DNA of 434 nt from a phage, in the sequence record MW984357.1; one strand, given 5' to 3'. Numbering within the stretch: position 1 is the first letter of the stretch; every line of letters starts with the position of its first letter. A program made the translations under genes and the position numbers. The notes under the pieces were generated by a model. The model saw nothing but the letters and a program-made list of their open reading frames with translations. It did no database searches and was not told where the DNA came from. Positions 1 through 434 of the stretch are shown piece by piece.

Positions 1-434
1 CTCACGTGCTACAGCTTTTTCGCAAAATCTTTAGTGGTACCTTTCTATTCTCACTCTCAGAATAGTCCGATTCTTCAGTATTGGTTGGCGCGGGGTGGAG
101 GTTCGGCCGAAACTGTTGAAAGTTGTTTAGCAAAATCCCATACAGAAAATTCATTTACTAACGTCTGGAAAGACGACAAAACTTTAGATCGTTACGCTAA
201 CTATGAGGGCTGTCTGTGGAATGCTACAGGCGTTGTAGTTTGTACTGGTGACGAAACTCAGTGTTACGGTACATGGGTTCCTATTGGGCTTGCTATCCCT
301 GAAAATGAGGGTGGTGGCTCTGAGGGTGGCGGTTCTGAGGGTGGCGGTTCTGAGGGTGGCGGTACTAAACCTCCTGAGTACGGTGATACACCTATTCCGG
401 GCTATACTTATATCAACCTCTCGACGGAATACAC
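1..434 (+). CDS. gIII: Filamentous-phage gene III (minor coat protein pIII/g3p) with N-terminal displayed-peptide fusion; partial at both ends, frame 1
   Basis: Frame 1 is open across all 434 nt. Translation from position 31 gives LVVPFYSHS-QNSPILQYWLAR-GGGS-AETVESCLAKSHTENSFTNVWKDDKTLDRYANYEGCLWNATGVVVCTGDETQCYGTWVPIGLAIPENEGGGSEGGGSEGGGSEGGGTKPPEYGDTPIPGYTYIN..., which matches my memory of M13 pIII (signal peptide C-terminus, N1 domain, Gly-rich linker, start of N2). No in-frame start codon for the leader is present in the window. Positions 1-28 and 418-434 deviate from the canonical sequence. Confidence 0.9.
29..57 (+). other. C-terminal portion of pIII signal peptide (…LVVPFYSHS), ending at the leader peptidase cleavage site after HS
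   Basis: Codons tta gtg gta cct ttc tat tct cac tct at 31-57 match the M13KE leader, including the engineered gtg gta cc (KpnI) change from wild-type gtt gtt cc. Upstream of position 29 the sequence no longer matches the canonical leader (MKKLLFAIP). Confidence 0.85.
36..41. other. KpnI/Acc65I site (GGTACC), the engineered 5' cloning site of M13KE-type display vectors
   Basis: Exact GGTACC at 36-41 inside the signal-peptide coding region. Wild-type M13 has GTTGTTCC here, so the site indicates an engineered vector. Confidence 0.85.
58..93 (+). other. Randomized 12-codon library insert encoding displayed peptide QNSPILQYWLAR
   Basis: 36 nt lie exactly between the leader end (tct cac tct) and the ggt gga ggt tcg spacer. 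The codons are cag aat agt ccg att ctt cag tat tgg ttg gcg cgg, and all 12 end in G or T (NNK), as expected for a degenerate-oligonucleotide library. No in-frame amber codon. Confidence 0.9.
94..105 (+). other. GGGS flexible spacer (ggt gga ggt tcg) between displayed peptide and mature pIII
   Basis: The sequence ggtggaggttcg directly precedes gcc gaa act gtt (AETV, mature pIII N-terminus). This spacer is the standard one in Ph.D.-type vectors as I recall. Confidence 0.85.
104..109. other. EagI site (CGGCCG), the engineered 3' cloning site of the display cassette
   Basis: Exact CGGCCG at 104-109, spanning the spacer Ser codon and the Ala1/Glu2 codons of mature pIII. Confidence 0.85.
122..143 (-). 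other. Binding site of the standard -28 gIII sequencing primer (5'-GTATGGGATTTTGCTAAACAAC-3')
   Basis: The + strand gttgtttagcaaaatcccatac at 122-143 is the exact reverse complement of the primer as I recall it. Its 3' end lies 29 nt downstream of the insert end, consistent with the primer name. Confidence 0.75.
190..209 (-). other. Binding site of the standard -96 gIII sequencing primer (5'-CCCTCATAGTTAGCGTAACG-3')
   Basis: The + strand cgttacgctaactatgaggg at 190-209 is the exact reverse complement of the primer as I recall it. Its 3' end lies 97 nt downstream of the insert end, consistent with the primer name. Confidence 0.75.
307..366 (+). repeat. In-frame 15-nt tandem repeat (gag ggt ggY ggN tct; four units, the last ending act) encoding the pIII glycine-rich linker EGGGS-EGGGS-EGGGS-EGGGT between N1 and N2
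   Basis: Units at 307-321, 322-336, 337-351 and 352-366. Units 2 and 3 are identical (gagggtggcggttct), unit 1 differs at two wobble-like positions, and unit 4 ends act (Thr) instead of tct. Confidence 0.9.
367..434 (+). other. Start of pIII N2 domain (F-pilus-binding domain), truncated by the window end; the last ~17 nt deviate from canonical
   Basis: Translation KPPEYGDTPIPGYTYIN matches canonical pIII. After that the window reads ...LSTEY where I expect ...PLDGTY, consistent with one missing C in the CCC run near 417-418 plus substitutions in the last 7 nt. Confidence 0.7.

Follow-up and report, generated by a model that had tools for sequence, protein, structure and literature searches.

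A 434-base phage record is almost certainly a sequencing read of an engineered M13 peptide-display clone of the M13KE / Ph.D.-12 design

Background

The 434 nucleotides of phage sequence record MW984357.1 (hereafter the window, meaning the whole stretch of DNA that was analysed) hold the 5' part of gene III of a filamentous phage, interrupted by 48 extra nucleotides where the leader meets the mature pIII protein. The question raised by this locus is whether such an insertion is a product of natural variation or of the laboratory. An earlier note, made from the letters alone, had called the window an engineered phage-display segment and not a natural locus. To examine the question, the window was aligned base by base with two M13 genomes and fd, and then with wild-type M13 plus the published cassette; comparison with the display vector M13KE was made through wild-type M13 carrying the cassette and primer sequences printed in papers. 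M13KE is about 7.2 kb long, has M13mp19 as its parent and contains a lacZ-alpha insert, and these parts lie outside the 434-base window. Features described below lie on the plus strand unless the minus strand is named.

Results and discussion

The gene III backbone and its interruption

Megablast against 50,697 phage records aligned positions 103-427 of the window with gene III of the Ff phages M13, f1 and fd; identities ranged from 97 to 99%, with M13 'Rutgers' (JX412914) highest at 98.8% over 103-427. A more sensitive BLAST search placed positions 16-56 on the gene III leader (record positions 1591-1631, 85%), and the downstream match starts at record position 1630. The two halves abut at 1630/1631 in the natural phages, which places the additional 48 nt precisely where the leader meets the mature protein. 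Window positions 58-102 are covered by none of the matched natural Ff records in the phage collection. Frame 1 of the plus strand is open across all 144 translated codons, which read …LVVPFYSHS, then QNSPILQYWLAR, GGGS and AETVESCLAKSHTENSF…, followed by the glycine-rich repeat and …TKPPEYGDTPIPGYTYIN.

Base-by-base alignment reduces the differences from wild type over 29-417 to six: T36G, T39A, C57T, the 48-nt insertion at 58-105, T108C and C136T. When the published cassette is placed in wild-type M13, 388 of 389 positions are identical and C136T is the sole residual difference. The backbone at 106-417 is identical to the Rutgers M13 isolate (JX412914) at 310 of 312 bases, the exceptions being T108C and C136T, and at positions 138 and 237 it has the M13 base, not the fd base. 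Position 210 is C, as in M13 'Rutgers' and fd; RefSeq M13 (NC_003287) has T.

The window thus shares with wild-type Inovirus M13 gene III (JX412914, NC_003287) the gene itself, its reading frame, the N1 domain, the glycine linker and the start of N2. The wild type, by contrast, has neither the 48-nt insertion nor the two restriction sites (KpnI, EagI) nor C57T, and its codon 11 of mature pIII is CCC (Pro), against TCC (Ser) in the window. An uninterrupted leader-to-mature junction (…SHS followed directly by AETVES) without engineered sites is a trait of natural Ff phages that is not found in the window.

Engineered restriction sites and published vector flanks

The 3' part of the gene III signal peptide occupies positions 29-57 in its M13KE form (…L V V P F Y S H S), identical at 29 of 29 positions to the wild-type leader with the published M13KE changes. 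The wild type differs from the window here at 36, 39 and 57. Two of these changes, T36G and T39A, convert GTTGTTCC, the sequence of both wild-type M13 and fd at this place, to GTGGTACC and make the KpnI/Acc65I site GGTACC at 36-41, the single such site in the window; the third, C57T at the end of the leader, is silent (CACTCC to CACTCT). The engineered EagI site, CGGCCG at 104-109, is also single, and is created by the last codon of the spacer, TCG, together with T108C, which changes GCT to GCC in Ala1 of mature pIII (…TCG GCC GAA, compared with ...TCC GCT GAA in the wild type). The earlier note had placed KpnI within the gene III leader and EagI at the mature N-terminus, and alignment confirms both sites, at places where wild-type M13 and fd differ and where the wild type has no EagI site, respectively. 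The synthetic cassette is bounded by two engineered sites, KpnI in the gene III leader and EagI where mature pIII begins.

The surroundings of this cassette have been printed repeatedly. The M13KE flanks TAGTGGTACCTTTCTATTCTCACTCT and GGTGGAGGTTCGGCCGAAAC are given in PMC5925455, the latter inside mutagenic primers, and are found letter for letter at 32-57 and 94-113 of the window; the leader flank is also printed in PMC8510196. The M13KE cloning cassette GTACCTTTCTATTCTCACTCT(XXX)nGGTGGAGGTTC, in which seven XXX codons are followed by GGTGGAGGTTC, is given in PMC4871350, and its sequences are likewise present verbatim. Cloning into M13KE by KpnI and EagI has been described as 'adapted from Ph.D.-12' (PMC4412080).

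The randomised insert and its spacer

The 48-nt insertion at 58-105 falls exactly at the signal-peptidase site and consists of 12 NNK codons followed by GGTGGAGGTTCG (Gly-Gly-Gly-Ser). The randomised library insert (58-93) starts right after the leader …TCT CAC TCT and reads CAG AAT AGT CCG ATT CTT CAG TAT TGG TTG GCG CGG, encoding QNSPILQYWLAR. In this frame every one of the 12 codons has G or T as its third base, in agreement with the prior description of a 36-nt insert obeying NNK at every codon; the two alternative frames give 5/12 and 7/12. The probability of 12 such endings in 12 codons is 0.00024 at 50% G/T and 0.0036 at 62.5%, the third-position G/T frequency of the window's native gIII codons, among which the longest run of G/T-ending codons is 7. 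The NNK pattern alone is only moderately unlikely; the decisive point is that all the features co-occur. The NNK design of New England Biolabs' own library is taken here as background, with an indirect statement in PMC4412080, which mentions the 32 codons of NNK in N-terminal libraries.

The spacer GGTGGAGGTTCG, which joins the displayed peptide to pIII, can be read directly at 94-105 as part of the 48-nt insertion, just as the ggt gga ggt tcg spacer had been reported. A GGGS spacer is described for Ph.D.-12 in PMC5109716, and the spacer DNA is printed in PMC5925455 and PMC4871350.

A natural Ff variant (M13/f1/fd) in which gene III had gained 48 nt together with a few point mutations would explain the backbone, which is genuine Ff gene III at 97-99% identity. 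It would not readily explain why the substitutions give rise to exactly two 6-bp restriction sites, one on either side of the insertion, nor why the inserted DNA coincides exactly with the signal-peptidase site, follows the NNK rule and finishes with a published spacer; the engineered features, moreover, occur in none of the matched natural Ff records. We regard a natural origin as effectively refuted.

Derivation from another family of display vectors (fd-tet/fUSE5 type 3, Ph.D.-7, Ph.D.-C7C or a pIII phagemid) is very improbable, although all of these fuse inserts to the N-terminus of pIII. Vectors of the fUSE5 / fd-tet type 3 share N-terminal pIII display on filamentous phage, but theirs is an fd backbone with SfiI cloning sites, whereas the window has no SfiI site (GGCCNNNNNGGCC) and carries M13 bases, not fd bases, at 138 and 237. 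Ph.D.-7 and Ph.D.-C7C are built in the same vector and have identical flanks, spacer and primer sites, but they carry 7 random codons, flanked in C7C by Ala-Cys … Cys; the insert in the window has 12 codons, not 7, and there is no Cys in it or beside it. Against a phagemid stand the presence of the native gIII leader and the failure of the whole window to match the plasmid collection PLSDB by megablast, a result that says little, PLSDB being without cloning vectors.

The same architecture could also come from a non-commercial source, namely a home-made 12-mer NNK library or a defined peptide cloned in M13KE via the KpnI/EagI cassette. Home-made M13KE libraries and defined inserts carry identical flanks (PMC5109716, PMC4871350, PMC4412080), and the window has no feature that separates a manufacturer's library from a user's. 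A designed insert, however, normally uses preferred E. coli codons (PMC4871350, PMC3444042), whereas every codon here ends in G or T and the non-preferred AAT, AGT, CTT, TTG and CGG are among them, which fits the expectation for NNK randomisation and not for a designed, codon-optimised insert. We consider a non-commercial origin unlikely. The commercial 12-mer library is by far the commonest source of such clones.

In the phage collection the 36-mer insert has no natural homolog, its only hits being two 18-nt chance matches (E=1), and neither the peptide QNSPILQYWLAR nor three of its sub-strings was found in the searchable literature. It is conceivable, and we suggest it only tentatively, that QNSPILQYWLAR is an unpublished binder panned against some target; it might just as well be an unselected clone or one unrelated to any target, the window holding no information on a target.

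Domains of mature pIII and a single-base vector marker

Downstream of the cassette the window encodes an ordinary pIII. The N1 domain of the mature protein (residues 1-67, AETVES…AIPEN) lies at 106-306 and matches Pfam PF05357 (Phage_Coat_A) with E=2e-32, 1fgp likewise giving N1 as residues 1-67. It is followed at 306-363 by the natural glycine-rich linker G1, whose (E)GGGS repeats are detected by Tandem Repeats Finder as 3.9 copies of a 15-nt unit and are identical to the wild type. This repeat also gave a spurious weak match to the PDB chain 7y6k, which contains an scFv linker. Comparison with solved structures puts the beginning of the N2 domain at about residue 87, from window position 364 onward, and the N2 start (TKPPEYGDTPIPGYTYIN, 364-417) is identical to wild-type M13 and to residues 87-104 of 1g3p. 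Overall, the window's mature pIII is identical to the M13 pIII crystal structure (PDB 1g3p) at 104 of 104 residues, Ser11 included.

The serine at residue 11 results from C136T, which replaces Pro11 of mature pIII. All 32 matched natural Ff records lack T136. It is not noise: an exactly matching kit primer requires T136, and 1g3p also has Ser11. C136T is thus a handy single-base marker that distinguishes gene III of the laboratory M13 vector lineage from that of natural Ff isolates.

Sequencing-primer sites

On the minus strand, the gIII sequencing primer GTATGGGATTTTGCTAAACAAC has an exactly matching annealing site at 122-143, its 3' end 28 nt (94-121) from the insert, and the gIII sequencing primer CCCTCATAGTTAGCGTAACG has another exact match at 190-209, its 3' end 96 nt (94-189) from the insert. 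Wild-type M13 would mismatch GTATGGGATTTTGCTAAACAAC at position 136. These offsets agree with what we take to be the conventional names of the kit's primers, '-28' and '-96', and the expectation that both standard gIII primer sites would be found at their usual distances was borne out. The primer GTATGGGATTTTGCTAAACAAC has been used with M13KE and Ph.D. clones (PMC8510196, PMC13014060), inserts being amplified in PMC8510196 by TTAGTGGTACCTTTCTATTCTC together with GTATGGGATTTTGCTAAACAAC; CCCTCATAGTTAGCGTAACG occurs in 84 papers, among them PMC5109716, where it was used with the Ph.D. 12-mer kit. The 2024 protocol PMC13014060 calls GTATGGGATTTTGCTAAACAAC (GTATGGG…) '-96 gIII', against a measured offset of 28 nt; the label is apparently swapped, and we take it as a slip.

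Quality of the window ends

In the wild type, the stretch corresponding to positions 1-28 runs from just upstream of gene III through the GTG start into the first leader codons (...TCAACGTGAAAAAATTATTATTCGCAATTCC). Positions 1-28 appear to be a degraded version of it, following the wild-type leader colinearly with 19 of 28 positions identical and 3 gaps; taken literally, the frame set by the GTG at 6-8 is not that of the leader. A different upstream element was considered as the origin of this segment and rejected in view of the same 19/28 identity and its colinearity with the start of gIII (ACGTG…TTCGCAA…CTTTAG). At the other end, alignments indicate that positions 418-434 have lost one C from a CCC run and that the last bases are miscalled (wild type CCTCTCGACGGCACTTATCC); this deletion, taken literally, frameshifts pIII within N2.

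The pIII protein is required for infectivity, and a display clone must propagate by infection. Because literal frameshifts would strike an essential gene of a clone propagated in this way, the mismatches at 1-28 and 418-434 most likely reflect miscalled bases where a single read begins and ends, not mutations. The earlier choice of 29-57 and 94-417 as clean stretches of vector was accordingly a sound one, the degraded segments lying outside them. Neither kit primer could yield a read spanning 1-434, and therefore another primer or an amplicon was used. The error-rich ends, with indels and miscalls, flank a clean core of about 390 nt and give the window the look of an untrimmed single-pass read.

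Searches of assembled collections and the opposite strand

Laboratory DNA derived from M13 is a recognised kind of contaminant, which counts in favour of vector contamination in a genome or metagenome assembly, the contig being misattributed to an organism. Collections of viral, genome and metagenome contigs, however, contained zero exact matches to the GGGS/EagI junction and zero to the KpnI-bearing leader, and a clean core of about 390 nt between error-rich ends is what a raw single read would show, rather than an assembled consensus. We judge contamination of an assembly to be quite unlikely. Of the earlier wording, 'vector clone or vector contamination', the first part stands, in keeping with the raw-read look of the window; the second is less supported, the junction being absent from the assembled collections that were searched.

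A search of Rfam on both strands at a permissive threshold found no family. The minus strand contains two open reading frames antisense to gene III, at 2-154 (50 aa, ATG) and 75-179 (34 aa, TTG). Nothing supports these frames, and they are treated as chance; the frame at 2-154 spans the synthetic insert and therefore is not a conserved natural gene in such a form.

Proposed working of the construct

By the established biology of pIII, the leader would direct export and signal peptidase would cut after …SHS. After cleavage, each copy of pIII at the tip of the virion would begin with QNSPILQYWLAR as its free N-terminus, with GGGS presumably holding the 12-mer away from N1. The displayed peptide would be physically linked to the DNA that encodes it, which would permit affinity selection (panning) followed by sequencing across the insert.

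Conclusions

The 434-base window is almost certainly man-made, a sequencing read obtained in the laboratory from an M13 phage-display clone engineered to the M13KE / Ph.D.-12 design. With the same near certainty it is a single-pass read, or the deposit of one, and its clone comes from a 12-mer random-peptide library in M13KE (New England Biolabs Ph.D.-12 design). It shares with M13KE / Ph.D.-12 clones the KpnI leader, TCT CAC TCT, (NNK)12, GGTGGAGGTTCG, EagI at Ala1, Ser11 (T136) and both primer sites; it differs from them nowhere in the core at 29-417, M13KE being known here from printed cassette and primer sequences, and only QNSPILQYWLAR is specific to this clone, the ends at 1-28 and 418-434 deviating. 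No evidence contradicting an M13KE / Ph.D.-12-type clone was encountered.

The earlier view of the window as an engineered segment is upheld by the alignment with wild-type M13 and fd together with the M13KE / Ph.D.-12 edits. Its proposed comparison of the window with M13KE and the wild type, made here in the equivalent form of wild-type M13, f1 and fd plus printed M13KE sequences, gave differences at the predicted KpnI and EagI positions, and every element that it had listed is present, each at its implied place or within 1-2 bases of it. The assignment of the architecture to M13KE-based Ph.D.-12 agrees with the published flanks and cassette found verbatim in the window, with the proviso that Ph.D.-12 is a product name and that a home-made 12-mer NNK library in M13KE would look identical.

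The construct is already known, and the sole novel content of the window is the identity of one library peptide, QNSPILQYWLAR; no new biology follows from it, and its significance is one of data hygiene only. Similar reads could be filtered by searching for GGTACCTTTCTATTCTCACTCT, then (NNK)n, then GGTGGAGGTTCGGCCGAAACTGTTGAAAG, plus T at the Pro11/Ser11 codon. It is advisable to mask the window or to flag it as a synthetic construct or vector, so that its 'insertion in a phage attachment protein' is not read as natural variation, as a mechanism that generates diversity or as a new determinant of host range.
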